Part shown: positions 3,343 through 29,272 of the stretch, piece after piece
How the letters are laid out: each line of letters begins with the position of its first letter
Numbering within the stretch: position 1 is the stretch's first letter
Virus record (IMG/VR): IMGVR_UViG_3300045988_074874
Reading direction: 5' to 3' (one strand)
From: a virus
Length of the DNA: 64,000 bases
Made by a program: the position numbers and the translations under genes
Notes under the pieces: model-generated
What the model saw: the letters and a program-made list of their open reading frames with translations, nothing else
The model's database searches: none
What the model was told of the DNA's origin: nothing

Positions 3343-3398
3343 TTTGCTAGGTTGCGCATGTACCTGGCAATGGTTTATTTCACATAGACCCTCCGATA

Positions 3399-4075: not shown

Positions 4076-4175
4076 TTATCCAATCTGTAAATATTGGATA
4101 TGAGGAAGCTGTCCGAGATGTAAGAAACAGTCGGCTTGTGGATTGCCGGTACAAATACGCTGAAAATCCACACAA

Positions 4176-4247
4176 GGCAGGGTAGAGAAGTGGAATCTCA
4201 CAAGACTCATATTCTTGAGAACGGCGGTTCGAATCCGCCTCCTGCAA
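4176..4247 (+). tRNA. tRNA with CAT anticodon (Met/Ile2 type), G1-A72 mismatch
   Basis: GAGA-AGTGGAA-TCTC D-arm, CAAGA-CTCATAT-TCTTG anticodon arm, GGCGG-TTCGAAT-CCGCC T-arm, acceptor GGCAGGG/TCCTGCA. Confidence 0.55.
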
Positions 4248-4532
4248 CTTAATCCGCTTAGAGTTAAGTTGTTTGTATACAGGCGGTCTATGCCTCTGGT
4301 GGATTTACGCATGAGCGTAAACGTACAACTCACTAGGCGTTTGCGTAAAAAACTTTTTAGAGAGATGAGACCACTGGCCGTAAGAAGTGATAGTCGGCAA
4401 TTCTAAAAGAACCATCTAGTTCATGCGTTTTACGATGGAAAGGTTAATGCTTATCTGGATATTTGTGTCCAGTCCGAAAGCATATGAAGTGAAAATCAAC
4501 TCAGTTTTTTTAACTGACCGTGACAAGCGGTA

Positions 4533-4601
4533 CGGAATGTAGCTCAGGTGGGAGAGCGCACTACAAAAGTGAGGTCGCAGGTTCGAATCCTGCCTTTCCG
4601 A
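4533..4601 (+). ncRNA. tRNA-like RNA with truncated/non-canonical anticodon arm (69 nt)
   Basis: Canonical acceptor, D-arm (GCTC-AGGTGGGA-GAGC) and T-arm (GCAGG-TTCGAAT-CCTGC) but only 18 nt where 21-22 are needed, giving a 3-4 bp anticodon stem and a 5-7 nt loop. Confidence 0.4.
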
Positions 4602-9395: not shown

Positions 9396-11132
9396 ATGCA
9401 AAAATTCACAGAAGGTTCGCTTGAATGGTATCGGGCAATTTTAAATCAAATCATTAATGATGATATGACAGTCTGTCAAAATCAGAAGGACTGCCTTGAT
9501 TTACTTTTGAATATGAATATTGACCTTCCTTTCAAGGATAATCCAGATGCACGGAATATGGCAATGAAAGTCAGCCGGTACGCTCATACAACTGCGGCAA
9601 GAAACGCGGCACTGACTGGAAGCGGTAATTTTGATGATATTTACTGGCAGTATTTATTATTGGAAGCACAGAACTATCAGGTTGACAGCGGGCTTCTTTA
9701 CCTTGAAAAGAACCGAATCCCGAAAGAACGATTCTATGAACCACGAAGAAATGTGTTCTTGCAGCATAACATCATAGGTTCACTGCAAGACCTGATGGAT
9801 GACAAATTAGATATATTTGCATTAAGCGTACCTCCGGGTTGTGGAAAGAGTACTCTGGAAGATTTCTTTTTATCATTGGTAGGTGGATGGTTCCCGAATG
9901 ACTTTAACCTGTCTTCGGCACACAGTAGCATTCTGACACGTTCCCTTTATGATGGTGTTCTGGAAATTATCAATGATCCCGTGGAATACACGTGGCATGA
10001 GATATTCCCTAACGTAGAAATTCAAGGAACAAATGCAAAGGAAACTACAGTCAATCTCGAAAGAAACGGACGATTTAAGACATGGACATTTCGTTCTATT
10101 GATGGCTCTTTGACTGGTGCCACTAGATGCAATAGATTCCTTACTGCCGATGACCTTGTGTCTGGTATTGAAGAAGCTTTGAATAAGAACCGACTTGATA
10201 CCCTGTGGACAAAAGTGGTAAATGACTTGCGTTCCCGTAGACTTGAGGGATGCAAAGAGTTTTATATTGCCACCAGATGGTCAGTACATGACCCTATCGG
10301 AAAACTGCAACAACTATATGCCGGAAACCCACGGGCAAGGTTTATTGCAGTTCCAGCACTTGATGAAAACGGAAAGAGCAATTTTCTGTTTACGGTAAAT
10401 GGATTCTCAGAGAAATATTTCAATGATGCTAAAGAATCCATGGATGAAATTTCTTACAACTGTCTTTATCAGCAACAGCCGGTAGAACGTGAGGGATTAT
10501 TATTACCACCGGACAAATTAAAACGATTCTTTTTCAGTAAAGAAGACGTGCCGGATGGATGCGCGGATGAATACATTATCATTCCAGATAAAGATGCAGA
10601 TGCGATATGGGCGGTATGTGATACAAAAGATAAAGGAACTGACTTCGAATCATTACCGATTGCATACCAATACGGAGATAAATTCTTCTTTCCCGATGTG
10701 GTGTTTGATGACACTACAGACTATGACATTTTGGATAGAAAGACAGCAGATATTTTGGTAAGACATAACCCACATAAGATTCGTTTCGAATCAAATAATG
10801 TCGGAAACCGTGTGGCACACAATATCCAGAAAATGATTACCGGAAAGTGTCGAGCTGAAATTGAGACAAAACCAACGTCAGCAAATAAAGAAACAAAGAT
10901 TCTTGTAAATTCGGACTATATAGCAAAACATTTTTATTTTCTGCATCCAAGTCAGTACAAAGCAAAGTCTGATTACGGATTGTTTATGGCTAATGTAACT
11001 ACGTACACTACTAGGGCAAAAGTACCACATGATGACGGAATCGATTCTTTGGCTATGATGGCTGAGTACATACAAAATCCATTAGGTGGTAAAGCAACGG
11101 CAATGCAGAATCCATTTTGGGGAAGGAGATAG
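9396..11132 (+). CDS. terL: terminase large subunit
   Basis: 578 aa; Walker A LSVPPGCGKST, nuclease-domain acidic motifs (ATRWSVHD, DDGIDSL), position upstream of portal. Confidence 0.85.
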   Translation: MQKFTEGSLEWYRAILNQIINDDMTVCQNQKDCLDLLLNMNIDLPFKDNPDARNMAMKVSRYAHTTAARNAALTGSGNFDDIYWQYLLLEAQNYQVDSGLLYLEKNRIPKERFYEPRRNVFLQHNIIGSLQDLMDDKLDIFALSVPPGCGKSTLEDFFLSLVGGWFPNDFNLSSAHSSILTRSLYDGVLEIINDPVEYTWHEIFPNVEIQGTNAKETTVNLERNGRFKTWTFRSIDGSLTGATRCNRFLTADDLVSGIEEALNKNRLDTLWTKVVNDLRSRRLEGCKEFYIATRWSVHDPIGKLQQLYAGNPRARFIAVPALDENGKSNFLFTVNGFSEKYFNDAKESMDEISYNCLYQQQPVEREGLLLPPDKLKRFFFSKEDVPDGCADEYIIIPDKDADAIWAVCDTKDKGTDFESLPIAYQYGDKFFFPDVVFDDTTDYDILDRKTADILVRHNPHKIRFESNNVGNRVAHNIQKMITGKCRAEIETKPTSANKETKILVNSDYIAKHFYFLHPSQYKAKSDYGLFMANVTTYTTRAKVPHDDGIDSLAMMAEYIQNPLGGKATAMQNPFWGRR

Positions 11133-11133
11133 C

Positions 11134-11556
11134 ATGGATATAAAGGAATATCTGAATCAAATTCAACGATATGAAAAAGTTATAAATAACAAACTGGAAG
11201 AAATCGAACACTTAAAATTGCTTGCTACTAGCATTAGTGCTTCGACGTATGGCATTGAACGCGTTCAAACTTCTGGAAGCCAAGATAAAATAGGCGATAC
11301 AATTGCAAAATTGGTGGATGCGCAGCGTGAACTGGCTGATAATGTGGTAGAACTTATGGATAAGAAGCAGAAACTTATAGATGTTATAGAGTCTGTGAAA
11401 AATCCCCAGTATTATGATTTTTTGTATAAACGATACGTAGAGGGAAAAAAGCTAACTGTCATTGCAGATGAAATGGAATACAATGAAGAATATATTAAAC
11501 AATTCCACGGGAAAGCAGTAAATTACGTAAAAGAAATGATTAATTTCAAAAGTTAG
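11134..11556 (+). CDS. putative late-gene regulator (ArpU/RinA or sigma region-4-like)
   Basis: 140 aa from ATG at 11134 (RBS GGGGAAGGAGAT); coiled-coil N-terminus and C-terminal HTH-like segment; sits directly before the first copy of the conserved motif. Confidence 0.35.
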   Translation: MDIKEYLNQIQRYEKVINNKLEEIEHLKLLATSISASTYGIERVQTSGSQDKIGDTIAKLVDAQRELADNVVELMDKKQKLIDVIESVKNPQYYDFLYKRYVEGKKLTVIADEMEYNEEYIKQFHGKAVNYVKEMINFKS

Positions 11557-11672: not shown

Positions 11673-13160
11673 GTGGGAAGAAACAAAAGCAATTTTGTTG
11701 ACCTATGCCAAGGCGATTTTGGCAGAAAAACTGCCTACACTGGCGTAGCTCAAATTACTACCGAAAATGTTGTTCAAGTTCTATCTGATACGATTGGTAC
11801 ACATAATCGAAACAGAATGATGATTAATTATCTTTATCGGTACTACAAAGGCGACCAACCAATCTTATATCGGGAAAAGCTTGTGAGACCGGAAGTAAAT
11901 AATAGAGTTGTCGAAAATCACGCTCTGGAAGTTGTCAAGTTTAAGGCAGGACAAATATATGGAGAACCTATTCAATATGTCTGCAAAAAGAAAAAAGCAG
12001 ATAAAAAGATAAATGAGCAGGTCGACCTGCTGAATGATTATCTGGACGAAGCAAATGCGGATGCCCGAAATATTCAGCTTGGAATATACCAGAGTGCCGT
12101 AGGAACTGCATACAAGGCAATTCTACGAGAAGACGATTGGACAAAAGACCGTGATTTACCACCATTTAGAATTTTTATTCCGTATCCGGGAGATGTTTAT
12201 ATTGTTTATTCCAGAAACACAGGAAAAGCAATGCTATCTGTTCAAATATTGAAAGATGAAGAGAATCAGCAATATTATCTTTGCTATTCTTCAAATCAAT
12301 ATTTCAAGATAAAGAACGGACAAGTAACCGTCAGCGGCATTAATGGCTTTGGCGGAATCCCAATTATCGAGTATCCAAACAACCATGACCGGCTATCTGA
12401 TGTCGAAATTGCAATTACAGCATTTGATGCGATCAACAAGTATCAGTCGGATAGATTAAACGGTGTTGAACAGTTTGTTCAAGCATTTATGAAATTCAAA
12501 AACTGTGAAGTTGACGAGAATGAATTTTTGAAAATGGTCAAGCTAGGAGCAATATCTGTAAAAGATGCTGGAAACGGTGTTCAGTCAGATGTTGACTTGA
12601 TGACTGCGGAATTAAACCAGTCGGAGAGCCAAGTTGCTAAAGACGACATTTACAATAATATGCTGATTGTAGAAGCAATGCCAAACCGCCAGAGCAACAC
12701 CGGTGGTGATACTGGTAATGCTGTATATTTGCGTAATGGATGGGATTTTGCAGAGCGAGATGCCAAACTTGTTGAAGCATTCACAAAAGAAGCCGAAAAA
12801 GCTTCTGTCAGAATTATTCTCAACATCATTCGCAAAACCTCCAATGATGTCAAGATTTCTACCAGAGATTTTGATGTCAAAATCACCAGAAACCCAACAG
12901 ATAACATGCTTGTTAAAGCACAGGCACTTGATTATCTGTTCAAGAATAAAATTCACCCGCTTATTGCATTGATTACTTGTGGATTATTCAGCGATCCGCA
13001 AAAGGTATATGAAATGAGCTTACCATATCTTGGAACTGTTTATCCCGAACTGGCAAACCCAGACGCAGAAATGAAGAAAGCACAAGAATTGATTAAAGAT
13101 TTTAGTCAGAAATCAATTCAAAATCAATCAGCAACAATTTCTTCCACTGGTGAAGAATAG
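11673..13160 (+). CDS. portal protein (SPP1 gp6-like), GTG start
   Basis: 495 aa, immediately after terL; portal-like size and composition. Confidence 0.7.
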   Translation: MGRNKSNFVDLCQGDFGRKTAYTGVAQITTENVVQVLSDTIGTHNRNRMMINYLYRYYKGDQPILYREKLVRPEVNNRVVENHALEVVKFKAGQIYGEPIQYVCKKKKADKKINEQVDLLNDYLDEANADARNIQLGIYQSAVGTAYKAILREDDWTKDRDLPPFRIFIPYPGDVYIVYSRNTGKAMLSVQILKDEENQQYYLCYSSNQYFKIKNGQVTVSGINGFGGIPIIEYPNNHDRLSDVEIAITAFDAINKYQSDRLNGVEQFVQAFMKFKNCEVDENEFLKMVKLGAISVKDAGNGVQSDVDLMTAELNQSESQVAKDDIYNNMLIVEAMPNRQSNTGGDTGNAVYLRNGWDFAERDAKLVEAFTKEAEKASVRIILNIIRKTSNDVKISTRDFDVKITRNPTDNMLVKAQALDYLFKNKIHPLIALITCGLFSDPQKVYEMSLPYLGTVYPELANPDAEMKKAQELIKDFSQKSIQNQSATISSTGEE

Positions 13161-13181
13161 ACGTTTTTACATCAATTATTT

Positions 13182-13214
13182 AAGGAATCTTGGAAAACTG
13201 AGATTCCTTTTTTA
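13182..13214 (+). terminator. rho-independent terminator after portal
   Basis: AAGGAATCT-N10-AGATTCCTT perfect 9-bp stem followed by TTTTTTAAT. Confidence 0.55.
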
Positions 13215-13319
13215 ATACTCAAAAATATTGCAACAGCCCGTGAGCGCAAATCGGGCACAGATCATGTGCGGAGCGAACCGTGTGAACAAAGTGTGTTGGT
13301 CTGGAAGAAAGGAGATTTC

Positions 13320-13961
13320 ATGACAAGAGAACAGGCAAAACAGGTACTTATCGGTATGGGAATTGAGGAACCATCTGATGAACAGGTGTCTAAATACCTT
13401 GATTCCGTTACAGGAGAAGTAAAGAAAGAAAAAGACAAAAATGCTTCATTACAAGAAAAAGCCAACAAGGCAGCAGAACTTGAAAAAGAATTGGAAGAGC
13501 TGAAACAGCAGAATATGACAGACGCTGAGAAAGCAGAACTGGAACGCCAGAAAGAAAAAGCTGCAAACGAGAAAAGAATTTCTGACCTTGAATCCGCACT
13601 TGCAACTTCCCAGAGAGAAGCACTGACAGGAAAAATCACTTCCATTTTTGCTAATGCAGGAATGCAAGGTGATGCCTACGCAGGAGCAATCAAAGCATTT
13701 TCCAATATGAATGAAGAAGATGCACTCAAAGAAGCACAGACTTTTGTTGATGGAATTTCCGAAGTAAATAAAACAACTCTCGATACTGCAAAAGCTGCAT
13801 GGGAAAAAGAAGCCCTTGAAAACACGCCTAATCCGGGTGGTGGAGCTGGCAACAGTAACGAGACAAAGAAAAGTGATGCATCTGAATATGCAAAAGCATA
13901 CTCAGCAAGAATGAACCCAGAAATCAAACCGGCGGACGATAACGCACCGGTAAATATTTAA
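13320..13961 (+). CDS. scaffolding protein
   Basis: RBS GAAAGGAG; Glu/Lys/Ala-rich coiled coil; between portal and capsid. Confidence 0.55.
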   Translation: MTREQAKQVLIGMGIEEPSDEQVSKYLDSVTGEVKKEKDKNASLQEKANKAAELEKELEELKQQNMTDAEKAELERQKEKAANEKRISDLESALATSQREALTGKITSIFANAGMQGDAYAGAIKAFSNMNEEDALKEAQTFVDGISEVNKTTLDTAKAAWEKEALENTPNPGGGAGNSNETKKSDASEYAKAYSARMNPEIKPADDNAPVNI

Positions 13962-13979
13962 GAAAAGGAGATTTAGATT

Positions 13980-14324
13980 ATGGCTTTTATGAAAACAGAG
14001 CAGTACGAATCCACACCTAATATCCTCGAATCCGAGGTAGGACTGGTACTTAAAACCTATACAGCAGAACAGACAAATGCTGAAACCGTTGGAACTAAGA
14101 AGATCATCAAAGCAGGTTCTGTATATCCGACAAATGCAACCGGTGCAAAAGGAATCGTATTTGAAGAGGTTGATATGACAGACGATGTAAAGAGACCAAT
14201 TTCCGTAATTGTTGCAGGACGTGTTCTTGAAAAAAGACTCCCGGTAACAGTTGATGAAACTGCAAAAACTGAACTTGAGAAATCAGGAATCGTTTTTGTA
14301 ACTACAGAAGACCCAGTATTTTAA
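13980..14324 (+). CDS. head decoration protein (lambda gpD-like position)
   Basis: 114 aa directly upstream of the capsid gene, the D/E arrangement. Confidence 0.4.
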   Translation: MAFMKTEQYESTPNILESEVGLVLKTYTAEQTNAETVGTKKIIKAGSVYPTNATGAKGIVFEEVDMTDDVKRPISVIVAGRVLEKRLPVTVDETAKTELEKSGIVFVTTEDPVF

Positions 14325-14337
14325 GGAGGTATAAAAG

Positions 14338-15372
14338 ATGCCATTTAATGTATTAGAATCAATTACACAGGAAGAAAGACTTAACTTCTCTCAGGATTTT
14401 AGCGTAAAAAGACCGGGTATTCTTGATACCATTTTCCCAGATGTTAAAACCCAGTACCTGAAAGCTGAATACTACAGACTTATGGCTGGACAGAGACTGC
14501 CAGAGGTAGCATTCGTTCATGCGCTTGATACTGAAGCAGAAATCGGAACAAGACCGGGCTTCGAAAAAGTTCTGACTGAAAAACTCTTTATTAAGAGAAA
14601 AATCAATCAGTCCGAAAGATTACAGCAGGCAATTGAAAACGGTGTGCCGGATAATGAAGCACTGAAAAACTTTGTATTTGATGATGCAGCTAACCTTTTT
14701 GAAGGTGTTGTTACCAGAGCGAATGTTATGAAAGGACAGTTCCTTTCTACAGGTGCCGTAAAAGTCAAAGAGAACAATGTAGATCTGAATATTGATTACG
14801 GCGTACCAGCAACTGCAAAAGTAACACTTGCCAACTGGGCTACGCCAGAAGCAGATATCATGGGAGATATCCAGAAGATGGTGGCCGCAGCAGAAGACAA
14901 TGGTTATGTAGTTAATAAAGCCCTTACATCCCTAAAGATGATTAACTATATGAGAAACAATACTGCTATGCAGACAGCGGTTCTGGGAGCAGCAAACAAA
15001 CGTCTTCTGACAAAACAGGAACTTGCAAATCTGCTTATGCAGGAATACGGAATCACAATTGATCGTTGCGATGAGAAATTCCACTTCAGAAAAGCAGATG
15101 GTTCTCTTAAAACAGGCAGATACTTCAAAGAAGATGTATTTACTCTGTATGAAGCAGATGCAAACGGTTCTTTCGGTACAGGACTCTGGGGCGTGACACC
15201 TGAGGAACTTGAATACAGACAGTTCATTCAGGAAGAAAACCGTTCTTTCGTAACACTGTCCATGTGGGCTACACAGGATCCGGTTGCAGTATGGACAAAA
15301 GCGTCCGGTATGTTCGTTCCGGTTGCTCCGAAAGCTAATGGCGGTATCGTTATCGGTACAAAGGGGGAATAA
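14338..15372 (+). CDS. major capsid protein (gpE-like)
   Basis: 344 aa after scaffold and decoration genes, strong RBS. Confidence 0.6.
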   Translation: MPFNVLESITQEERLNFSQDFSVKRPGILDTIFPDVKTQYLKAEYYRLMAGQRLPEVAFVHALDTEAEIGTRPGFEKVLTEKLFIKRKINQSERLQQAIENGVPDNEALKNFVFDDAANLFEGVVTRANVMKGQFLSTGAVKVKENNVDLNIDYGVPATAKVTLANWATPEADIMGDIQKMVAAAEDNGYVVNKALTSLKMINYMRNNTAMQTAVLGAANKRLLTKQELANLLMQEYGITIDRCDEKFHFRKADGSLKTGRYFKEDVFTLYEADANGSFGTGLWGVTPEELEYRQFIQEENRSFVTLSMWATQDPVAVWTKASGMFVPVAPKANGGIVIGTKGE

Positions 15373-15470
15373 CCGGGCATAGTCTCAATGAGAACAGCCG
15401 ATCACCGTCTGTAGCAAGTGTTAAATTCAAAGAACCAACACATAAATACACAGAAAGTGAGCTGTCTAAT

Positions 15471-15575
15471 ATGACTGTACCACAGTTAAGACAGCTTGCA
15501 AGTGATAATGGCTATGCCCTGACAGCAACTAATAAGGCTGGTATCATTTCTGAAATATTAGTTCAGCAAGGGTAG
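15471..15575 (+). CDS. tiny Rho_N/SAP-like peptide (34 aa)
   Basis: MTVPQLRQLASDNGYALTATNKAGIISEIL resembles the Rho N-terminal motif; very short. Confidence 0.2.
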   Translation: MTVPQLRQLASDNGYALTATNKAGIISEILVQQG

Positions 15576-15585
15576 GTGATTTTGG

Positions 15586-15912
15586 ATGAACGAAGAGCTT
15601 ATAAACGATTTGGTAAACTATCTGACCGATGATACAGAATCACCTGAAATGATTTCTCTTGCCGTAAAACGAGCAATTCGTTCGTTCAAGAATAAGAGAA
15701 ACTATCCTTCAAGTTATACAGATAAAAAAATAGATAGTGACATGGAAAAATGCTATGATTGCATATTTGATTTAGCCCTCTATTTTCTTGTGAAGCAGGG
15801 GGCTGAGTTCCAAGGATCACATTCTGAATCTTCTGTAAATAGAAGTTGGGAATCTGAAACCGAAATTTATATTAATCATGGTGTTTTTCCTTTTGCTGGA
15901 AGTTTGAGTTAA
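15586..15912 (+). CDS. head-tail connector protein (gp6-like)
   Basis: N-terminus EELINDLVNYLTDDTESPEMISLAVKRAI resembles Phage_connect_1. Confidence 0.5.
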   Translation: MNEELINDLVNYLTDDTESPEMISLAVKRAIRSFKNKRNYPSSYTDKKIDSDMEKCYDCIFDLALYFLVKQGAEFQGSHSESSVNRSWESETEIYINHGVFPFAGSLS

Positions 15913-15945
15913 AAAAGATGGGATGGAACGCAATGTGTTTTTCCT

Positions 15946-15972
15946 CCCGGTACATTGCAGGGTTGCTCATTA
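15946..15972. repeat. TCCCGGTACA...AGGGTT motif, copy 1
   Basis: TTTTTCCTCCCGGTACATTGCAGGGTT shares CTCCCGGTACA and AGGGTT with 23927-23948. Confidence 0.3.
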
Positions 15973-16022
15973 AAGTAGGGAAAGAGCAAAAATCTTATAG
16001 GGAGTGAAAGAAAGGAAAAGCG

Positions 16023-16334
16023 ATGGGATGTGAACATGAGTGCTTTAACAATCACCGCTTCGAAGAAATCGAAAAAAGTATTCATGATATGCAGGAAAAG
16101 CAGTCTGAAAGGCACAAAGAATTTTATTCAAGAATTAATAAGCTCGAACAGAAGACCGCCCTGTATAGCAATGACTTAGATCATATTAAAGAAACAGTCG
16201 ATGAAATGAACAACAATTTAAAAATCCTCATGGCAGTCCCTGGCAAACGTTATGACACTATTATTGTATGCATTATAACGGCAGTCGTGGGAGCAGTTGT
16301 AGGATTTATGTTGAGCGGTGTATTTCCTATGTAA
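16023..16334 (+). CDS. XhlA-like haemolysin/lysis-accessory membrane protein
   Basis: Coiled-coil N-terminus plus single C-terminal TM (IIVCIITAVVGAVVGFMLSGVF) as in the XhlA family. Confidence 0.45.
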   Translation: MGCEHECFNNHRFEEIEKSIHDMQEKQSERHKEFYSRINKLEQKTALYSNDLDHIKETVDEMNNNLKILMAVPGKRYDTIIVCIITAVVGAVVGFMLSGVFPM

Positions 16335-16373
16335 CAAATTGATTCCACTTGTAAGGGAGGACGGTGGAGTTAT

Positions 16374-16628
16374 ATGAATTATGCAGATTTTTCAGAAGAT
16401 GAAAGAAAATTTTACTTGCAAGAAGCAGGTTTTGATTCACGCGAAGAAAAATTATTTCGATTACGGGCTTATGACGAAAAGACATTATGGGAAGCATCTG
16501 AATTAATGGAGTACAGCCCCAGAACCATAGACCGAATCAATAAAAAAATAAAGCAGAAAATTACCAAAGTTGCCCCGATGTACATTCGGGGCTTTTCTTT
16601 GCATAATGGCGGAAATGTGGCGAAATAG
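16374..16628 (+). CDS. hypothetical small protein
   Basis: ORF with RBS GGAGGACGGTGGAG; its 3' end contains a terminator hairpin. Confidence 0.4.
   Translation: MNYADFSEDERKFYLQEAGFDSREEKLFRLRAYDEKTLWEASELMEYSPRTIDRINKKIKQKITKVAPMYIRGFSLHNGGNVAK
16572..16600 (+). terminator. rho-independent terminator
   Basis: GCCCCGA-TGTACAT-TCGGGGC followed by TTTTCTTT. Confidence 0.5.
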
Positions 16629-16684
16629 TGACGTTCAAATATAGTGCTTCTTCCTATATGATATAAGCATAAGGAGAAAACAGT

Positions 16685-16879
16685 ATGCTTATATTAGAGA
16701 ACCCTTATGAAGGATTATGGGAAAAGCATCTGTCTGTGGATGACATGGACATGATTCTTGAATCCCGGATGGGAGGAACATATTATGGCTTATCCGTATT
16801 ATCAGCCAATAATGGCAAATCCATATCAGCAACCACAAATACAGCCATATCAAGACAGATTGGCACAGCTACAAAATAG
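16685..16879 (+). CDS. hypothetical ORF overlapping start of next gene in another frame
   Basis: Strong RBS ATAAGGAGAAAACAGT-ATG; overlaps 16785-17291 by 95 nt. Confidence 0.25.
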   Translation: MLILENPYEGLWEKHLSVDDMDMILESRMGGTYYGLSVLSANNGKSISATTNTAISRQIGTATK

Positions 16880-17291
16880 TTATCAGCAAACAATGCCGTA
16901 TGGACAGGCGCAGATGCAACAGCCCATGCAGCAGATTCCGCAGATTTCCATGTTGCAAGGGCAAATGGTGGATGGAATTGATACTGTAAAAGCAAAGGAT
17001 GTTGATATGTCCGGCAATCCTGTTTACTATCCAAAAACAGATGGAACAGAAATATATAAAAAGCAATTACAGGCAGACGGAAGAAGCAGGATTTTTGTTT
17101 ACCGACTTGCAAATCCAGACGAACAGCAGCAACCGAAGCAGGAAGAAAAACAGATTGACATTGAGTCCATGTTTAACCAGCTTCGGAATGATGTTTGTTC
17201 TGAGATTTCCGGAATCAAAGATATGTTCCCGACATTTATGTCAGGAACATCGGAAGCTGCAAAACAGCAGAACGGAGGTAAGCAGAGATGA
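16785..17291 (+). CDS. Gln/Pro/Tyr-rich low-complexity protein
   Basis: RBS GGAGGAACA; N-terminal YPYYQPIMANPYQQPQIQPYQ...QQPMQQIPQ tract. Confidence 0.45.
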   Translation: MAYPYYQPIMANPYQQPQIQPYQDRLAQLQNSYQQTMPYGQAQMQQPMQQIPQISMLQGQMVDGIDTVKAKDVDMSGNPVYYPKTDGTEIYKKQLQADGRSRIFVYRLANPDEQQQPKQEEKQIDIESMFNQLRNDVCSEISGIKDMFPTFMSGTSEAAKQQNGGKQR

Positions 17292-17533
17292 ATTTCAACC
17301 CAAACGCCATGATGAAAAAGCAACTTGAGAAAATGATTTCTCAGAGGTTCGGAAGTGTGAATAACATGATGAACGATATGAGTAAATTTGCAGGAAATAA
17401 TCCGACATTGAAAAATGCATTGGATTTATACAAAAAAGGTGATACAGATCAGTTACATCAAATACAGCAAAATGTATTTAATGAAAAACACTTATCACCA
17501 GACGGAATTATCCAGAAGTTCCTTGGATTATAA
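17288..17533 (+). CDS. hypothetical protein
   Basis: ORF coupled to upstream gene. Confidence 0.4.
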   Translation: MNFNPNAMMKKQLEKMISQRFGSVNNMMNDMSKFAGNNPTLKNALDLYKKGDTDQLHQIQQNVFNEKHLSPDGIIQKFLGL

Positions 17534-17629
17534 CATTTCCCCATAATTGGGTGATTCAAAATCGCTACAATTTGGGATGACAGCCGCGGATGTCTCCTAT
17601 TGTAAATAAAATTTAAGGAGACTAAAAAC

Positions 17630-18430
17630 ATGATGAATGGTTCAAATTACAGTCTTAGTGACATTGCTGCCGCTACAGGCTCTAATAATCGCGCCAATGA
17701 TATGTGGGGCGGTGATGGCTTTTCACTTATCTGGCTTGTCTTGATCTTTGCTATCTTTGGATGGGGAGGTTTTGGCGGCTGGGGCGGCGGCTTCGGTGGA
17801 AATGGTGCAAATGGTGCTGGATTCCAAGGATGGGCCACACGTGCAGATATCAATGAGAGCTTTGCTCTTAATGATATCCAGAATGGTATCAGAGGTATTC
17901 AGCAGGGTATCTGCGACAGCACATATGCTCTCAACAATACCATGCAGAGTGGCTTCAACGGCGTGAACGTTGGAATGCTTCAGGGCTTCAATGGTGTTCA
18001 ACAGGCAATTAACGCTGATACCGTAGCTGGTATGCAGAATACCAATGCATTACAGTCTCAGTTAGCAAACTGTTGCTGTGAAACAAGAGAAGCTATACAG
18101 GGTATCAACTACAACCTTGCTACCAACACTTGTGCTCTCCAGAACACAATGAACAACAACACCAGAGATCTTCTGGAAAACCAGAACAGCAACACAAGAG
18201 CAATCCTTGACTTCCTGACTAACGATAAGATTGCAACATTACAGGCAGAGAACTCTGATCTGAAGCGTGCTGCATCTCAGGATCGCCAGTCCGCGCTGAT
18301 TGTAACTGAAATGAATGCACAGACGCAGCGATTAATCAATTCAATCAATCCATCCCCGATTCCTGCATTTCAGGTACCGGCTCCGTATGCATACGCAGGA
18401 TGCAACGGATATGGAAACGGTTGCTGCTAA
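17630..18430 (+). CDS. membrane protein with Gly/Trp-rich segment and Cys-rich C-terminus
   Basis: TM helix LIWLVLIFAIFGW followed by GGFGGWGGGFGGNGANGAGFQGW, then CCC and CNGYGNGCC clusters; RBS AAGGAGA. Confidence 0.5.
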   Translation: MMNGSNYSLSDIAAATGSNNRANDMWGGDGFSLIWLVLIFAIFGWGGFGGWGGGFGGNGANGAGFQGWATRADINESFALNDIQNGIRGIQQGICDSTYALNNTMQSGFNGVNVGMLQGFNGVQQAINADTVAGMQNTNALQSQLANCCCETREAIQGINYNLATNTCALQNTMNNNTRDLLENQNSNTRAILDFLTNDKIATLQAENSDLKRAASQDRQSALIVTEMNAQTQRLINSINPSPIPAFQVPAPYAYAGCNGYGNGCC

Positions 18431-18460
18431 GTAACTCACCCTTAGAGGTTGACTAATTCT

Positions 18461-18491
18461 AAGAGGTGGGTTACGGCTCACCTCTTATTTT
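18461..18491 (+). terminator. rho-independent terminator
   Basis: AAGAGGTG-N10-CACCTCTT then ATTTTG. Confidence 0.55.
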
Positions 18492-18508
18492 GATTGAGAG
18501 GTAAAAAT

Positions 18509-18934
18509 ATGAGTTGTAAAAATGTTTGTAAGCTCTGCAACCATCTTGTAATCAGCCAAGCCGTTGCATTTACAGGAGGCAATCTTGTAATCACACTCCC
18601 GGCAGGCAGTTATTCCAATGGAGAAAAGTATTGCATTGTGATCGCACAAAGTATACCAACAACCACTACGATTACCGCCCCGGTAATGATTCAAATAGGA
18701 ACAGGAACAACTTTGTATCCGCTAGAGAATCGTTGCTGTGCACAGGTTACAGCTTGTGGCGTAAGAACCAGAACGAAGTACGCAACAAGAGTAGCTACAA
18801 GTGCAACTGGTGGAGTATTCAAGATGTTAGGAAATCCAGCTTGTAGTCCGAGTAACAATTTGACAGCAATTAATGGTACAGCCCCAACGACAGACACACC
18901 TGTTACACAGGCTGTTAGAAAGGGGGAACTGTAA
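18509..18934 (+). CDS. Thr/Cys-rich hypothetical protein
   Basis: RBS GAGAGGTAAAAAT; CKNVCKLC N-terminus, Thr-rich beta-like body. Confidence 0.45.
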   Translation: MSCKNVCKLCNHLVISQAVAFTGGNLVITLPAGSYSNGEKYCIVIAQSIPTTTTITAPVMIQIGTGTTLYPLENRCCAQVTACGVRTRTKYATRVATSATGGVFKMLGNPACSPSNNLTAINGTAPTTDTPVTQAVRKGEL

Positions 18935-19560
18935 TGCATAAAGTTGCAATGGAAATGGGAAAATGGGCTATGGAAAAAGCCAAAACACATGGCTTCGACA
19001 ATCTCAGTGCTCAAGACTGGGACGATCTGAAAGACTGCATGGAATCCGTAAAGTGTGCGATTTGTGCAGATAAAGATTACAGAATCGTAGAAGCTATGGA
19101 CGAATGCGAACAGGAAGAGAAGTATCTTGGACGCATGGGATATGACAGGTATCGTTACGCAAACGGCAGATTTGCCCCGAAAGGCAAAGGAAGTCGCATG
19201 GGATATAAACCGTATCTGTACATGGAAGATGATGATTGGATGGAAGAGTATCTGAACAATCCAGAGTTTGAACGTAATATGTACCGCATGGGATATCATC
19301 CAGACCGTAGTGATATGAGAATGGATGGAATGAACCATAAGCAGTCCAGATATGGTGAAAGCTATGACAGATACAGCGAAAACCGCAGACATTACCATGA
19401 TTCCAATGATACAGAATCTAAGAGAAAAATGGATGATTCCATGAAAGAGTATACATCTGACATTATCCGTAATCTTACAGAGATGTGGTCAGATGCAGAC
19501 GCGACTCTTAGACAGTCGATGAAAACCGACTTAACCCGTCTGATACAGCAGATGAATTGA
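18934..19560 (+). CDS. hypothetical protein with three (G/S/Y)RMGY repeats
   Basis: GRMGYDRYRY, SRMGYKPYLY, YRMGYHPDRS; Asp/Arg/Tyr-rich. Confidence 0.5.
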   Translation: MHKVAMEMGKWAMEKAKTHGFDNLSAQDWDDLKDCMESVKCAICADKDYRIVEAMDECEQEEKYLGRMGYDRYRYANGRFAPKGKGSRMGYKPYLYMEDDDWMEEYLNNPEFERNMYRMGYHPDRSDMRMDGMNHKQSRYGESYDRYSENRRHYHDSNDTESKRKMDDSMKEYTSDIIRNLTEMWSDADATLRQSMKTDLTRLIQQMN

Positions 19561-19579
19561 CAAATAAGAATTAAATTTT

Positions 19580-19612
19580 GCCCTTGTTACAGAAATGTAG
19601 CAGGGGCTTTTT
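19580..19612 (+). terminator. rho-independent terminator
   Basis: GCCCTTG-N14-CAGGGGC then TTTTT. Confidence 0.5.
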
Positions 19613-19638
19613 AGCTGAGAAAAGGATGGTGATAAACC

Positions 19639-20025
19639 ATGCTAAGACAATTTTATATGAACGGGGACTTATGGAGAGTGCAGTTCGTATCTCCGCACGA
19701 CAGTGTGTTAATTGATCGCACAGGTAATAGAACACTTGGAGTATCGGATTATTCCACCCATGTTATTTCAATCGCAAATAACCTTCACGGGGAACTTCTG
19801 AACCGTGTGTTTATCCATGAATTAGGTCATTGCGTGATGTTCAGCTACGGTCTATTACCAGAACTTCACCGCATGGTCAAAAAACGATACTGGGTGGACG
19901 CAGAGGAATGGTGTTGCAATCTTCTAGCTGACTATTCTTGTTTCGTGATTGGCACAGCTAGAGATGCTTTAGGAAACCAGTTCACATATGTATCTCCTGT
20001 TGGGGTAGAAAGGATGATAGCTTAA
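19639..20025 (+). CDS. small HExxH zinc metallopeptidase-like protein
   Basis: FIHELGHCV motif in 128 aa. Confidence 0.5.
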   Translation: MLRQFYMNGDLWRVQFVSPHDSVLIDRTGNRTLGVSDYSTHVISIANNLHGELLNRVFIHELGHCVMFSYGLLPELHRMVKKRYWVDAEEWCCNLLADYSCFVIGTARDALGNQFTYVSPVGVERMIA

Positions 20026-21713
20026 TGGCATTTGCAGACAATAATATCATACCAATACAATTAGATTATAGATTCGTGACAACCCGTAAAATCTGGCAAT
20101 ACGACTACGGTCAGATATTGAGCATCACAGGACAGAATCTTCCAACAGCTACGGAGGTACATTTTAGCCTCGATATAAGAGGTGGAAGCACACTGTCAAG
20201 AGTTGGAACAACAATAGATGGCGTGACAACTGTTAAGATTCCAGACGAATTACTGAAAAACAATGGAAAGTCTGGTGATTTTTCTATCTATGCGTTCGTA
20301 TACGTGGCTGATGAGGAATCCGGCAATACAGAGTACAGAATTACTATTCCGGTGTACAGTCGACCAAAGCCAGAGAATCCAAGCGTAGATCCAGCACCGG
20401 AACCGAATATTTTCCATGAAACGGTTACTGCGGTCAATAACGCGGCTGATCGGGCAGAAAAAGCAGCGAAAGATACGGAGCAAATACGTGACAATCTGAA
20501 TCTTGACCTGTCAGAGAAAATTACTCGACCACAGTCCGCAAAGGTTGGACAGGTAATAGCGGTAAAAGAAGTCGGTACAGACGGCAAACCGACAGATTTC
20601 GAAGCAAAGGACATGACAGGCGGTGCGTCTACGGAAGAAATCAAAGAAGCTGTCGGTGCGTATATGCAAGAACACCCGTTTGAAGAGACCGACCCAACAG
20701 TTCCAGACTGGGCGAAACAACCAGAAAAACCGACATATACTGCAGAAGAAGTTGGTGCATTACCAGATAATACAAAGATTCCAACAAAGACATCTGAACT
20801 AGAAAATGACAGCGGATTTCTTTATTCTCCCCCAACTCCCGAAGTTGGCAAAATCCTCAAAATCAAATCAGTCAACGAAGATGGCACATTCGTCTGTGAG
20901 TGGGCGGATGGTGGAAGTAACTTGGATGTGCGGATTAATGGTGAGAGTATTGTGCAGGATGGGGTTGCGGAGATACCGATATCTTCGCATGATACTCTTG
21001 GATTGGTATACACCGACAACTCGGCCGGAGGCTATACTACTGGGCTAATGAATCAACAAGGAAGATTAAAAGTAAATACCGCAAGCATTGACGATGTAAA
21101 TAAGAGACGTCTTAGAAAAGAAATTGATTGTTCCAACTTTGATTACGCCGTCAAAGCCGCCATGTGCGATGGAAAAGGTGCTGCATGGACAGCAGAGGAA
21201 CAGGCGGCAGCTAGGGAGAGGATGGGGATTATTTCAGAAGATGATTTTGAATTAATAGCAACTGTGAACCCATCCAAAGAAGAAATTGTCAGTTCTATGT
21301 TAATAGATTTAGCCGAACCTATAAAAGCAAATTTTTATATTGTTTGTAACATAGGAATCACAGACAAATCACTAAATTATGTGAACATTCCACGACTTCA
21401 ATTGACGATTAATGATTACACTACATGGATGTATCAATCTCTACAAAAAAATAGTACAGAATTACGATATATGTTAATGCAGATACCGATATGTAAAAAA
21501 AGCGGGCTTGTTATTTTATCCAATCCTATACCTATAAATAATGATTTTCAGTCAGGTACAAACCTTGTTGGAAATGGATTAGGAATAGCACCATACAGTG
21601 ATCGTAATTATTCAAAAGGAATAACCAAAATAAACATTACAGCGAAAGATAACTACTCAGCAGGATATTTTTCGAAGAATACTGTGTTCACAATATATGG
21701 AAAACGTATATAG
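20025..21713 (+). CDS. tail fibre / receptor-binding protein with BppU-like N-terminal domain (XkdV-like)
   Basis: N-terminus IIPIQLDYRFVTTRKIWQYDYGQ resembles baseplate upper protein N domains; followed by XkdW/XkdX-like genes. Confidence 0.5.
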   Translation: MAFADNNIIPIQLDYRFVTTRKIWQYDYGQILSITGQNLPTATEVHFSLDIRGGSTLSRVGTTIDGVTTVKIPDELLKNNGKSGDFSIYAFVYVADEESGNTEYRITIPVYSRPKPENPSVDPAPEPNIFHETVTAVNNAADRAEKAAKDTEQIRDNLNLDLSEKITRPQSAKVGQVIAVKEVGTDGKPTDFEAKDMTGGASTEEIKEAVGAYMQEHPFEETDPTVPDWAKQPEKPTYTAEEVGALPDNTKIPTKTSELENDSGFLYSPPTPEVGKILKIKSVNEDGTFVCEWADGGSNLDVRINGESIVQDGVAEIPISSHDTLGLVYTDNSAGGYTTGLMNQQGRLKVNTASIDDVNKRRLRKEIDCSNFDYAVKAAMCDGKGAAWTAEEQAAARERMGIISEDDFELIATVNPSKEEIVSSMLIDLAEPIKANFYIVCNIGITDKSLNYVNIPRLQLTINDYTTWMYQSLQKNSTELRYMLMQIPICKKSGLVILSNPIPINNDFQSGTNLVGNGLGIAPYSDRNYSKGITKINITAKDNYSAGYFSKNTVFTIYGKRI

Positions 21714-21722
21714 AGCGGGGTA

Positions 21723-22028
21723 ATGATAGTGAGCAAAATAGCAGAATACAAACAAATCAATACAAGAACAGAATCTTACACAGTAACCGTTCCAGCCGAG
21801 TACGATGAAGACGGTAACCTCATCTCTGAAGAACATGAAGAAACCCGTACCCGTGAAGTCCCAGTGATGGGAATGGTCTACAGAGATATGACACCCGAAG
21901 AGATTGCCGAACTGGAGAAGATTCAGACGGAACTCCCAGAAGAACAACCAACTCAGCAAGATCGTATCGAAGCACAGGTTATGTATACGGCACTGATGAC
22001 AGACACATTATTAGAAAGTGAGGAATAG
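21723..22028 (+). CDS. XkdW-like small acidic protein
   Basis: Position between fibre protein and XkdX homologue. Confidence 0.35.
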   Translation: MIVSKIAEYKQINTRTESYTVTVPAEYDEDGNLISEEHEETRTREVPVMGMVYRDMTPEEIAELEKIQTELPEEQPTQQDRIEAQVMYTALMTDTLLESEE

Positions 22029-22030
22029 AA

Positions 22031-22156
22031 ATGTTTGAGAAAATTAAGAGATTTTTCAACCTGCATCTGTACACAAAGAAGCAGATCAGACAGTTTTGTG
22101 ACAAGGGCGTAATCACCCCGGAGCAGTATAAGCAGATCACCGGAGAAGAGTACTAA
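22031..22156 (+). CDS. XkdX family protein (41 aa)
   Basis: MFEKIKRFFNLHLYTKKQIRQFCDKGVITPEQYKQITGEEY matches the XkdX pattern (ITxEQYxxITGE); below ORF-track cutoff. Confidence 0.5.
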   Translation: MFEKIKRFFNLHLYTKKQIRQFCDKGVITPEQYKQITGEEY

Positions 22157-22173
22157 CATGAGTGAGGTATATT

Positions 22174-22560
22174 ATGAGAGGGTTAAAGCGACAGCAACAG
22201 ATAGTATACTGGTCAAAAGTAACCGAAGCACTTGATGGGATAGATACCGTATCGTCCTACAGTCAGCCACAAAGTTTTAAGTTTTCCGTATCATCCACCG
22301 CAGGAACACCAGAGGAAATATCGGCAGGAATTGTGCCGGATTACGACAGGTACATTACTTCATTCAACCGTTCTTTCCATCCGCAAGAGGGAGATGTATT
22401 TTGGATTGATACCGTGCCACAGGTTGACACACTCGGAAATCTGGTTCTGGAAGATGGTATTCCTACAACACCGCCAGATTATCGTTTGAAGAAAATCCTT
22501 GATACGCAAAGAGGGAATCTGGCTAGATATGGAATTAAAAAGATAGGTGCAGAAGAATGA
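22174..22560 (+). CDS. head-tail adaptor / head closure-like protein
   Basis: ATG with RBS GTGAGGT; size and position typical. Confidence 0.4.
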   Translation: MRGLKRQQQIVYWSKVTEALDGIDTVSSYSQPQSFKFSVSSTAGTPEEISAGIVPDYDRYITSFNRSFHPQEGDVFWIDTVPQVDTLGNLVLEDGIPTTPPDYRLKKILDTQRGNLARYGIKKIGAEE

Positions 22561-23075
22561 GCGGACGAGTAATCAAATGCAATCTGAGTCAAAAATCTAT
22601 TGGAAATGCAATCAAAGAGTTGAAAGCATATCAAAACAGCCTTCGCGATAAAAATGAAGTATTTCTTAAAAGACTTTGCGAATTGGGAATTCCTGTCATA
22701 GACGAAAATATTATGTTGGCACAGGGAGATTCTGATAAAAACCACAATACCTACATCAAAATCAACAGGTTCGGAAATTACGCGCAGGCAACTCTTGTGT
22801 GCGAGGGTTCTGGGATTTTATTCATAGAATTCGGTGCAGGTATTTCGTACAACACTCCGGCAGGAACAAGCCCCCATCCAAAAGGAGAAGAATTTGGATA
22901 TACTATTGGTTCTTACGGACAGGGTAAAGGAGAAAATGAATCGTGGGTATATGTGGCAGATTCTGGCGAATGGGTACGTTCTTACGGTACGGAGGCTACA
23001 ATGCCCGTTTACAAAGCAAGTGTAGAAATTATGCAGAACATCCGTAGAATCGCAAAAGAAGTGTTTTCTGCATAA
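22557..23075 (+). CDS. tail-completion / neck protein candidate
   Basis: 172 aa coupled ORF ahead of major tail protein region. Confidence 0.4.
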   Translation: MSGRVIKCNLSQKSIGNAIKELKAYQNSLRDKNEVFLKRLCELGIPVIDENIMLAQGDSDKNHNTYIKINRFGNYAQATLVCEGSGILFIEFGAGISYNTPAGTSPHPKGEEFGYTIGSYGQGKGENESWVYVADSGEWVRSYGTEATMPVYKASVEIMQNIRRIAKEVFSA

Positions 23076-23612: not shown

Positions 23613-23906
23613 ATGGAACAGATTATGAACTATGTGAAACCGGAACTTCTTATTGTCGCGGTTGTACTGTACTTTATCGGAATGGGTATTAAAAAGTCCG
23701 AAGTCATACCGGACAAATATATCCCGGCAATCCTTGGTGCTTTAGGCATTCTGATTTGTGGAATTTATGTTATTGCTACATGCGCTATATCTGGCGCACA
23801 GGAAATCGCAATGGCAATTTTTACCGCAATCACACAGGGAATCCTCGTTGCAGGACTTAGTAATTATGTAAATCAGATCGTAAAGCAGGCAAGCAAAGAA
23901 GACTAG
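23613..23906 (+). CDS. holin-like small membrane protein
   Basis: 97 aa with two or three TM helices and a charged C-terminus; RBS GGAAAGGAG. Confidence 0.5.
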   Translation: MEQIMNYVKPELLIVAVVLYFIGMGIKKSEVIPDKYIPAILGALGILICGIYVIATCAISGAQEIAMAIFTAITQGILVAGLSNYVNQIVKQASKED

Positions 23907-28052: not shown

Positions 28053-29272
28053 CATAGTAATGTGTTAGTGAAAATCGAGTAAAATCGGTAAAACCTGTAC
28101 TGAATACTGTATTTGTGTTATAATAAATACAGGTGATATGATTGAAAAAAGAATTTGTAATTTATACAGCAACTAATAAAATCAACGGGAAAATATACGT
28201 TGGAAAAACTTATAATTTTGAAAAAAGAAGAAAAGAGCATTTTTATGACATTAATGATGATATTCCTTTCCATAGAGCTTTAAAGAAATATGGAATTGAA
28301 AATTTTGAATGGAAAATCATTGATTGTGCCAAAACCGATGATGAAATAAAGGAAAAAGAAATATACTGGATAAAAAAGCTTAATACATGTATTCATTCAA
28401 AAAACTCAAATGGGTACAATATAACATTGGGTGGCGAAGGCGGTGTTTCGTGGAATTCACTTCCGGTTATTCAGTATGACTTAGATGGGAATTATATTCA
28501 AGAATTTCTAAGCTGCCAACATGCTTCAGTATGTACTGGAATAGGGCGCCATAATATAGGAGATTGTGCCAATGGAATTACTAAACAATCTGGTGGTTAT
28601 CAATGGAGATACAAAGTCGAAAATAAAATTGACTCCATAGAAGCGTATCAAAGGGCAGAATCACCTCGCAAAAGAAGTATCATACAGCTAGATCTTGATG
28701 GAAATTTTATAAACACTTTCAATTCCGTAACAGAAGCAAGCAAAAAGATTGGAATAGGAAGAGCTAATATATCTTCTTGTTTAACTGGTAAAATAAAAAG
28801 AAGTGGTGGTTATCAATGGATTTACGCAGATAACTATGACGAAAATCAAAATTATAAGTTTAAAGGAATATCAGAGGGTAATGGAATATTCCAATTAGAT
28901 CAGAACAAGAAAATAATAAATCATTTTAATAATTGTTCTGAAGCAGCGAGGTTTCTAGGAGAAGAAACAAAAGTACACAAACAAATTCATAAAGCAATAA
29001 ACACCGGCCACAAATGTAGAGGATTCTACTGGTGCAAGTGTGATGATTATATCAATATTCAGCATGGCAATACCGAGGTAATCGCATAGATAGCGAAAGG
29101 CTATGCGACACCGTAGAGCGTAGGAGATGAATAAATATAATTCTCCCAAGAGTGCTCGACAACCATAAGACGTAGAAATACGTCTTATTTTTATGGTTGA
29201 AAATGTACGCCGACCTTATGGGAAACCATAAGAAGTAGAGGATAAAAAGCCTTTACGATAACAAAGTGAAAT
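28023..29272 (+). mobile_element. candidate group I intron carrying a GIY-YIG homing endonuclease, splitting the tape measure gene (boundaries approximate)
   Basis: The conserved TMP motif ...TIDD | (N)QPANQIRMLQSNFASLGRTIG is restored across a 1.25 kb interruption; ~300 nt of non-ORF sequence with hairpins flanks the HEG ORF. Confidence 0.35.
28142..29089 (+). CDS. GIY-YIG homing endonuclease with repeated GGYQW DNA-binding modules (TTG start)
   Basis: FVIYTATNKINGKIYVGKTYNFEKRRKEH is the GIY-YIG motif; three NUMOD-like repeats (SGGYQWRYK, SGGYQWIY); embedded in the TMP gene. Confidence 0.7.
   Translation: MKKEFVIYTATNKINGKIYVGKTYNFEKRRKEHFYDINDDIPFHRALKKYGIENFEWKIIDCAKTDDEIKEKEIYWIKKLNTCIHSKNSNGYNITLGGEGGVSWNSLPVIQYDLDGNYIQEFLSCQHASVCTGIGRHNIGDCANGITKQSGGYQWRYKVENKIDSIEAYQRAESPRKRSIIQLDLDGNFINTFNSVTEASKKIGIGRANISSCLTGKIKRSGGYQWIYADNYDENQNYKFKGISEGNGIFQLDQNKKIINHFNNCSEAARFLGEETKVHKQIHKAINTGHKCRGFYWCKCDDYINIQHGNTEVIA

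Follow-up and report, generated by a model that had tools for sequence, protein, structure and literature searches.

Are the unusual genes that lie among the morphogenesis genes of some phages independent acquisitions, or do they travel together as a unit? The question is raised by positions 16,023 to 19,612 of a 64,000-nucleotide stretch of viral DNA (IMG/VR virus record IMGVR_UViG_3300045988_074874; the whole stretch is hereafter the window), where an earlier note described five self-contained, moron-like genes inside the morphogenesis region. All five open reading frames (ORFs), here called X, Q, G, T and R, are present on the + strand with the compositions described, and each is preceded by a Shine-Dalgarno-like sequence. 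The list itself was incomplete, however: it skipped two genes, S and e, and its coordinates left out a third, H. We found that the segment from S through H (16374-20025) is one conserved, collinear and horizontally mobile accessory cassette, made up of S, then Q-e-G, then T-R and an optional H.

The evidence comes from comparing the window with 86 other loci that carry a homologue of G, drawn from phage records, bacterial genomes and metagenome-assembled genomes (MAGs); many of these loci are from MAGs, whose taxonomic labels can be wrong. Iterated hidden Markov models built for each gene of the block were run over all of them. The order S-Q-e-G-T-R-H recurs on one strand with few exceptions, consisting of stray matches to S or H. 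With the window counted, the families are represented as follows: Q, 75 loci; R, 62; S, 56; e, 42; T, 28; and H, 19, where it follows R. Hosts are mostly Clostridia and Bacilli. Most loci without T have a gap of about 500 nucleotides between G and R that encodes a protein of about 140 residues belonging to another family. Pfam BclA_C (PF18573) is matched by 5 of the 26 members scanned (best E 4.4e-7), and two subgroups of this BclA_C-like family are homologous to one another (hhalign probability 98.6%). The T protein of the window has no sequence similarity to the BclA_C model or to either subgroup; given that its predicted fold matches fibre knobs (see below), T and the BclA_C-type proteins look like alternative knob-like proteins at one position. 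Directly after R, some Bacilli-type cassettes (L052, L053, L060, L062, L066, L067 and L079) have an ORF of about 118 codons. It is the likely source of five matches to DUF7841 (PF25223) among downstream neighbours, obtained in a scan that reports no protein identities; among the fold neighbours of T in BFVD, a DUF7841 protein of a crAss-like virus ranks 22nd.

The cassette is found at different sites in different phages. Its usual home is a cargo slot after the holin or endolysin gene and before an integrase or the end of the prophage. Judged from simple ORF calls, endolysins, holins and amidases predominate in the two gene positions just upstream; the two just downstream are occupied by integrases, serine recombinases, host genes, scaffold proteins and dUTPase, among others. 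The cassette follows a holin and a C39-like peptidase in bajarodcaudo virus 5, an endolysin in Butyrivibrio virus Ceridwen, and an amidase, a holin, an XhlA-like gene and an antirepressor in Clostridium perfringens phage XP41-N3. In one prophage lineage the host metH gene comes directly after it, and in the circular form the integrase gene directly precedes it. In Dulem virus 35 the minor capsid protein gene is on one side of it and the scaffold and capsid genes on the other. In the lineage of the window it occupies the head-tail joining region. G is also carried by further C. perfringens phages and by a Bacteroides uniformis phage, C3_41T2LP; carriers that have been cultured are this phage, Butyrivibrio Ceridwen and the C. 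perfringens phages XP41-N3, CPD1 and vB_CpeS-17DYC. Full-length G homologues are also found in the crAss-like Suoliviridae cr4_1 and cr52_1 (E 6e-30 and 1e-41), with the transmembrane (TM) segment, the CCC motif and the Cys tail all retained. A T homologue (E 1e-7) comes next, and this G-T core sits between lysis and structural genes. Hosts therefore span Bacillota and Bacteroidota, which argues against a spore-specific role.

A narrower comparison was made with 80 viral contigs whose capsid proteins are 92-99% identical to that of the window; 66-69 of these were long enough to score the cassette. Of these, 62-65 (~94%) have the whole series X-S-Q-e-G-T-R-H at the same site and in unchanged order, and H follows R in 62 of 66. 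Four of about 69 lack G-T-R-H or more, with the flanking head and tail genes kept. One such variant keeps X-S-Q only; in another, G is cut at residue 157 and followed by an unrelated 397-residue ORF. Two variant contigs, one of which keeps only X and a truncated S, carry a tyrosine recombinase (PF00589, E ~1e-39) in the slot, which hints at recombinase-mediated cargo exchange there. The recombinase genes are at 12222-13064 in L153 and 15348-16385 in L170, in a slot equivalent to about 16600-22100 of the window. The unrelated ORFs of the deletion variants, 397 and 520 residues long, have no Pfam match. A further variable element lies just beyond H: the 562-residue gene that had been taken for a fibre or adaptor gene is present in only 5 of 65 close relatives, being absent, for example, from L088-L090. 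Together with the 101-residue gene that follows (20025-22028 for the pair), it is the most moron-like indel of the region. The deletion variants and this variable gene mark the slot as a cargo hot spot, and particles can probably be formed without the cassette.

Purifying selection on the cassette genes is strong. Their ratios of nonsynonymous to synonymous substitution rates (dN/dS) lie between 0.02 and 0.18 (0.045 for e and 0.037 for R); the major capsid protein has a ratio of 0.07 and the portal one of 0.03. The composition of the block is not foreign: it has a GC content of 0.420 against 0.407 for the other late genes, and 0.405 against 0.355 at third codon positions, with neither a dip nor a peak in the profile. 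The synteny check suggested in the earlier note thus shows an accessory block, as anticipated there, yet one retained in most close relatives under selection as strong as the capsid's. The idea of accessory cargo rather than core morphogenesis genes holds, in that the cassette occupies other sites in other phages and is missing from four close relatives. By the same token, two marks of a moron were recovered, variable presence and occurrence at multiple sites (at least four contexts), and a third, foreign composition, was not.

The hairpin and T-run terminators reported at 16572, 18461 and 19580 are real features of the region (we place the second at 18460). The sites, at 16572-16592, 18460-18487 and 19580-19607, are the three strongest in the interval 13000-23000, where 13 terminator-like sites were found against 7.7 +/- 3.2 expected. 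All three are kept among the close relatives, whose G-T intergenic sequence is nearly invariant. In the wider set, a terminator-like site follows S in 49 of 55 loci, G in 63 of 86 and R in 29 of 62, and follows Q in 4 of 75; the control, random windows of the same loci, gave 62 of 267 (23%). These counts point to three conserved units, namely S, then Q-e-G, then T or its BclA_C-type counterpart with R and sometimes H. Possession of a terminator had been equated with autonomy, but the terminators turn out to be conserved internal punctuation of one cassette. The first hairpin falls within the non-conserved 3' end of the S ORF. The T start codon is only about 21 nucleotides from the hairpin at 18460, and the H start codon about 31 from that at 19580; neither T-R nor H therefore has room for a promoter of its own, and T-R, H and the essential tail genes would need read-through transcription. 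Since T starts 21 nucleotides past the stem, the second terminator is probably an attenuator, and the hairpins generally look like attenuators or insulators, not ends of autonomous units. A single promoter candidate was recognized, ahead of Q, with a -10 hexamer that is conserved among relatives; across loci, no common promoter motif was found upstream of Q or downstream of G. A 156-residue gene after the large terminase gene (11086-11556) has weak matches, at E 4e-4 and 8e-3, to DUF1492, which is sigma region-4-like, and to the phage antitermination protein Q. If it encodes an antiterminator, read-through of the three terminators in the late operon would be explained. The features of the region are collected in the table.

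Features of the cassette and its immediate surroundings, with positions in the window
Feature	Position	Strand	Basis or remark
X, XhlA-like small membrane protein, 103 residues	16023..16334	+	coiled coil and C-terminal TM 76-103
S, sigma-70 region-4-type helix-turn-helix protein, 84 residues, first cassette unit	16374..16628	+	Pfam and NCBIfam matches
Intrinsic terminator 1, 7-bp GC-rich stem and T-run	16572..16602	+	overlaps 3' end of S ORF
Candidate sigma-70-like promoter, TTCAAA-17-TATGAT, upstream of Q	16634..16662	+	consensus match only
Q, 168 residues, Gln/Pro/Tyr-rich	16785..17291	+	PHROG 21718, E 6e-17
e, 81 residues, Asn/Met-rich	17288..17533	+	start overlaps Q stop
G, 266 residues, signature gene, single-pass membrane protein	17630..18430	+	PHROG 16490, E 6e-69
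Intrinsic terminator 2, 12-bp stem and T-run, between G and T	18460..18497	+	
T, 141 residues, Thr/Cys-rich, beta-sandwich core	18509..18934	+	structure model
R, 208 residues, three RMGY motifs	18934..19560	+	family in 62 loci
Intrinsic terminator 3, 12-bp stem and T-run, after R	19580..19617	+	
H, HExxH (IHELGHCV) metallopeptidase-like, last and optional cassette gene	19639..20025	+	PHROG 1233, E 8e-10
562-residue gene, variable flanking cargo outside the cassette	20025..21713	+	N-terminal 135 residues match PHROG 16164, E 1.7e-41

The individual proteins give few functional leads. X matches two PHROGs annotated "hemolysin" (937 and 1193, E 6.5e-12 and 6e-8), a label that we take to mean XhlA-type. 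These matches and the architecture of the protein fit the earlier designation as XhlA-like, but Pfam XhlA (PF10779) is absent from the matches of X at E <= 0.1. Only 6 loci, the window being one, have X near the cassette; it is present in 74 of 74 close relatives. An XhlA-like gene lies upstream of the cassette in the window, Dulem virus 35, XP41-N3, L010 and L076. S is a sigma-70 region 4 helix-turn-helix (HTH) protein without other regions, and so not a complete sigma factor: the window protein matches Pfam Sigma70_r4 at E 0.013, 14 family members match with values down to 2.4e-10, and NCBIfam sigma70-ECF (TIGR02937) is matched at E 1.2e-6. Q (Gln 18%, Pro 8%, Tyr 7%) consists of a Tyr/Gln/Pro-rich low-complexity N-terminal region, a conserved domain of about 55 residues and a C-terminal helix. 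A 64-codon ORF with a strong AAGGAG ribosome-binding site (16685-16879) overlaps the start of Q in another frame and is probably no separate gene, since it is conserved in close relatives only. R has a helical domain at each end, joined by an Arg/Gly/Tyr/Met-rich low-complexity linker that holds the RMGY motifs. The H protein of the window matches Peptidase_M78 at E 0.053, below the curated cut-off; members of its family match Peptidase_M78 (1e-6), DUF6782 and SprT-like families, and H is only about 113-128 residues long.

G is the sole component other than X in which a membrane segment was found: a single TM is predicted at about residues 25-51, and none in Q, e, T or R, whose N termini, by reading, contain no signal peptide. 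Gly/Trp/Phe-rich tracts flank the TM and are followed by an Asn/Gln-rich region, a Pro-rich segment and a Gly/Asn/Cys-rich tail. Further landmarks are the GWGGFGGWGGGFGG tract, the CCC motif and the CNGYGNGCC tail, with 8 Cys overall; Q144, C148-C150 and S216-Q217, in the Asn/Gln-rich region, are invariant in the family alignment. At least 7975 homologues are present in a large protein collection, only three atypical entries among them having a Pfam domain; at 50% identity, 1566 clusters of G were counted. Their sources in public data are mostly phages of the human and animal gut, crAss-like phages included.

T (Thr 16%, 8 Cys) is the one protein for which a structure model was made. An input of 27 sequences gave a predicted local distance difference test score (pLDDT) of 45; the model used here, from 83 sequences, has a mean pLDDT of 79.5, and about 90 across residues 11-110. 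In it, those residues form an eight-strand beta-sandwich, preceded by a flexible Cys-bearing N terminus and followed by a Thr/Pro-rich tail. Outside its own family, what the model matches best in BFVD is the C-terminal domain of phage tail fibres, collagen-repeat fibres and a receptor-binding protein being among them. Against the PDB, Foldseek returned a weak match to gp47 of Pseudomonas phage Pa193 (9b45, E 0.23). The Cys motif at the N terminus of T and the Cys-rich tails led us to consider a ribosomally synthesised and post-translationally modified peptide or bacteriocin; this idea was rejected, as the cassette encodes neither modifying enzymes nor transporters, and conservation does not extend to the CxxxCxxC spacing.

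Searches by sequence were otherwise negative. No member scanned of the Q, e, G and R families matches Pfam, and none of these matches NCBIfam or PADLOC. Family profiles of Q, G, R and T found nothing significant in the PDB by sequence, only unannotated PHROGs were recovered for Q and G and none for e, T has no convincing match by sequence and only weak ones by fold, and an Rfam scan of the block detected no RNA element. The PADLOC defence models gave nothing for Q, T, R or H and only weak matches of coiled-coil type, the best being CorA-like for X (1.9e-5). In the literature we found nothing under the PHROG identifiers, and no virion proteomics of carrier phages.

We favour, on balance, the view that the cassette is a mobile, non-core, membrane-associated accessory module. 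Core virion genes its members do not appear to be, as their position is fixed only within the close lineage and no structural family is matched by sequence. In the lineage of the window it has come to occupy a recombination-prone slot that separates the head genes from the head-tail joining genes. In a working model, G would insert into the host cytoplasmic membrane through its N-terminal TM and serve as an anchor. T would be an exchangeable knob-like beta-sandwich, its place being taken in other cassettes by a BclA_C/C1q-type protein; T, Q, e and R, having no signal peptides, would assemble with G as a membrane-associated complex. The terminator after G would ensure a higher dose of Q-e-G than of T-R. 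Finally, S and the M78-like H might constitute the cassette's own regulatory pair, by analogy with ImmR and ImmA. Pairs of this type, made of an HTH protein and an M78 metallopeptidase, regulate mobile elements. The likeness lies in a small HTH protein and an HExxH, Peptidase_M78-like protein at the ends of the cassette; unlike ImmR, S is of the sigma-70 region-4 type and not an XRE repressor, and S and H are not adjacent.

As to function, our guess is that the module most likely acts at the level of the envelope, to the benefit of the phage in the infected cell or the lysogen. Protection or superinfection exclusion is ranked first among the possible roles, a tentative choice, ahead of a non-essential virion accessory and of control of lysis or egress. 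It is equally tentatively that we consider a broader possibility: a new, very widespread and self-regulated machine at the host envelope, anchored by G, with T or BclA_C as knob and low-complexity partners, common to phages of Clostridia and Bacilli and to crAss-like phages.

Several observations weigh against an envelope module acting in the host cell. The role is guessed only from the anatomy of the proteins and their context. The nearest folds to T are knobs of virion fibres, and conservation of T is extreme (70-93% identity over the best 120 of 4481 matches), which does not befit a protein that binds receptors or competitors in an arms race. The membrane topology of G is ambiguous because there are few charges beside the TM, and no co-variation was found between its C-terminal tail and the kind of gene at the T position. 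Crass-like phages are mostly non-temperate, and the presence of the G-T core in them implies that a purely lysogen-expressed function is not general. Retention in most close relatives, inside a morphogenesis operon, would equally be expected of a virion accessory that is useful without being essential. The four deletion variants, moreover, are metagenomic contigs and may come from phages that are not viable.

Some of these points favour the best of the alternatives, in which G, T and their partners form or assemble a non-essential fibre, whisker or decoration of the virion, T or the BclA_C-like protein being its distal knob and Q, e and R acting as chaperones or adaptors. Besides the fold of T, it can be argued for this alternative that BclA_C, which replaces T at its position, is also a fibre-tip domain, that the cassette lies within the head module in both the window and Dulem virus 35, and that it is retained by close relatives with dN/dS values like that of a capsid gene. 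The same slot also bears the variable 562-residue gene and, in two deletion variants, the ORFs of 397 and 520 residues. Most phages, however, have the cassette after the lysis genes or at the prophage end beside the integrase, not among tail or fibre genes, and it is shared by genomes with different layouts of head genes and by crAss-like phages (Crassvirales). A hydrophobic membrane segment in G, a dedicated HTH regulator, a peptidase and internal terminators are likewise not what a virion appendage would lead one to expect, and variants without G-T-R-H exist. The proteins had been described as less like phage structural proteins than like cell-surface or coat proteins; by sequence no component matches a known structural family, but the fold of T is closest to phage tail-fibre knobs. 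Even here there are differences from distal knobs such as Pa193 gp47, since T is a free-standing protein of 141 residues with no shaft, is conserved rather than hypervariable, and in most genomes is encoded away from the tail genes. We regard a virion accessory as rather unlikely.

Somewhat less probable still is that the cassette controls lysis or egress, G acting with the holin and endolysin and its soluble partners tuning the timing of lysis or the release of virions. The gene immediately upstream of the cassette is most often an endolysin, holin or amidase gene, the five loci named above have an XhlA-like gene ahead of it, and G crosses the membrane once. In gross topology G resembles the class III holin T of phage T4, which has one TM near its N terminus and a large C-terminal domain containing conserved Cys. 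X, for its part, resembles XhlA of Bacillus subtilis PBSX in being small, with an N-terminal coiled coil and a C-terminal TM; in contrast to the PBSX gene, it is not followed by a holin and an amidase gene, and few cassette loci have it. Adjacency to lysis genes does not discriminate, however, because this is a standard cargo slot. G matches no holin family in PHROG or Pfam, and the phage has a separate holin (23613). In the window the cassette is 4 kb from the holin gene and 20 kb from the endolysin-like gene, and in some prophages it is in the lysogeny or early region. Known lysis systems, moreover, offer no parallel to a knob-like beta-sandwich or to low-complexity proteins.

Lysogenic conversion of the host surface, in which the Cys-, Tyr- and Gly-rich and BclA_C-like proteins would enter the coat, exosporium or another surface layer of Clostridia, seems to us very improbable. 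These compositions had given the impression of cell-surface or coat proteins, an impression supported by the membrane protein G and by the BclA_C proteins found at the T position in many cassettes, yet not by the T protein of the window, which is no member of BclA_C. That hosts are overwhelmingly Clostridia and Bacilli, and that integrated copies have the cassette at the prophage end, would also fit such a role. The C-terminal domain of BclA (PF18573) is a C1q/TNF-like knob of the exosporium nap and of collagen-like fibres; its relatives in the cassettes are stand-alone proteins of about 140 residues and T is a beta-sandwich of similar size, but here there is neither a collagen-like stalk nor an export signal. 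An export signal or TM is absent from every component but G, none of the components matches DUF4183 or other spore-appendage families, and homologues of G and T are carried by phages of non-sporulating hosts, namely crAss-like Suoliviridae and Bacteroides uniformis phage C3_41T2LP. A spore appendage of the Ena or F-ENA kind (PMC12357932) was considered separately and rejected: there is no match to DUF4183 or DUF3992, and the crAss-like carriers speak against a spore-specific role.

Five independent morons accumulated side by side, the autonomous units of the earlier note, can hardly be reconciled with one order and strand in 86 other loci, conserved terminator positions, overlapping or abutting Q/e and T/R frames, the lack of promoter space before T-R and H and the absence of any compositional anomaly, despite the presence of three strong terminators and a promoter-like site within 3.6 kb. 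Morons and lysogenic-conversion cargo, of which HK97 gp15 and lambda bor and lom are examples, are nevertheless among the nearest known parallels. The cassette resembles them as accessory DNA set amid conserved late genes or in the interval from the lysis genes to the attachment site, with intrinsic terminators at its bounds, a membrane protein and a presence limited to some relatives. It differs in being a collinear module of six or seven genes, HTH and peptidase genes among them, rather than a single gene, in that two of its three units have no promoter space, in its non-foreign composition and in its occurrence in crAss-like phages too.

If the envelope reading is correct, the cassette would represent a new class of phage envelope device, such as a new superinfection exclusion or egress system. 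Should it serve exclusion or lysis control, this would bear on the competition among gut phages and on the fitness effects of prophages. Viewing these genes as a cassette turns thousands of orphan "hypothetical protein" annotations into a single testable unit. It might also prove to be merely another accessory module of modest effect.

The genes around the cassette are in a familiar late-gene order. Upstream are those for the large terminase (9396), the portal (11673), head decoration (13980) and the major capsid protein (14338). A 108-residue gene (15586-15912) directly precedes the block; its proposed identity as the connector is positional, the best sequence match being at E 0.005. Beyond H and the 562-residue gene come small head-tail joining genes, the holin gene, the genes for the major tail protein (24017) and the tape-measure protein, which is split, a large tail protein gene (36146) and the endolysin-like gene (39803). 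The window is a single-orientation stretch, and close relatives of the phage assemble to about 78-80 kb. The holin gene (23613-23906; PHROG 1129, and Phage_holin_5_2 in relatives) lies within the group of head-tail joining genes, shortly before the major tail protein gene and about 16 kb from the endolysin-like gene (39803-41470).

Other features of the window were noted in passing. The two parts of the tape-measure gene (25386-28052 and 29294-32353) match the same PHROGs at consecutive profile positions and are separated by a GIY-YIG homing-endonuclease gene (28142-29089, GC 0.31); no group I intron was detected there at the Rfam gathering score. In L087 and L088 the tape-measure gene is an uninterrupted ORF of 1553-1587 codons. 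Right after it in the window is an HNH endonuclease gene (32579-33784, local GC 0.29), preceded by a match to the Rfam int-alpA RNA (32476-32548, 45 bits). Four phage tRNA genes at 3270-4601 specify Gln(UUG), Met, Met and Cys, the last with an unusual ACA anticodon. Codons for these residues are more frequent in the block than in other late genes (Gln 6.4% vs 3.8%, Met 5.3% vs 2.4%, Cys 2.4% vs 0.8%), a correspondence that may be coincidence. On the minus strand are genes for a LytTR response regulator (41580-42287) and an HTH_3 repressor-like protein (44478-44819). The window also contains genes for an ANT/AntA antirepressor (45259-46041), a reverse transcriptase (RVT_1, 54197-55216) and a C5 cytosine methyltransferase (61516-62955).

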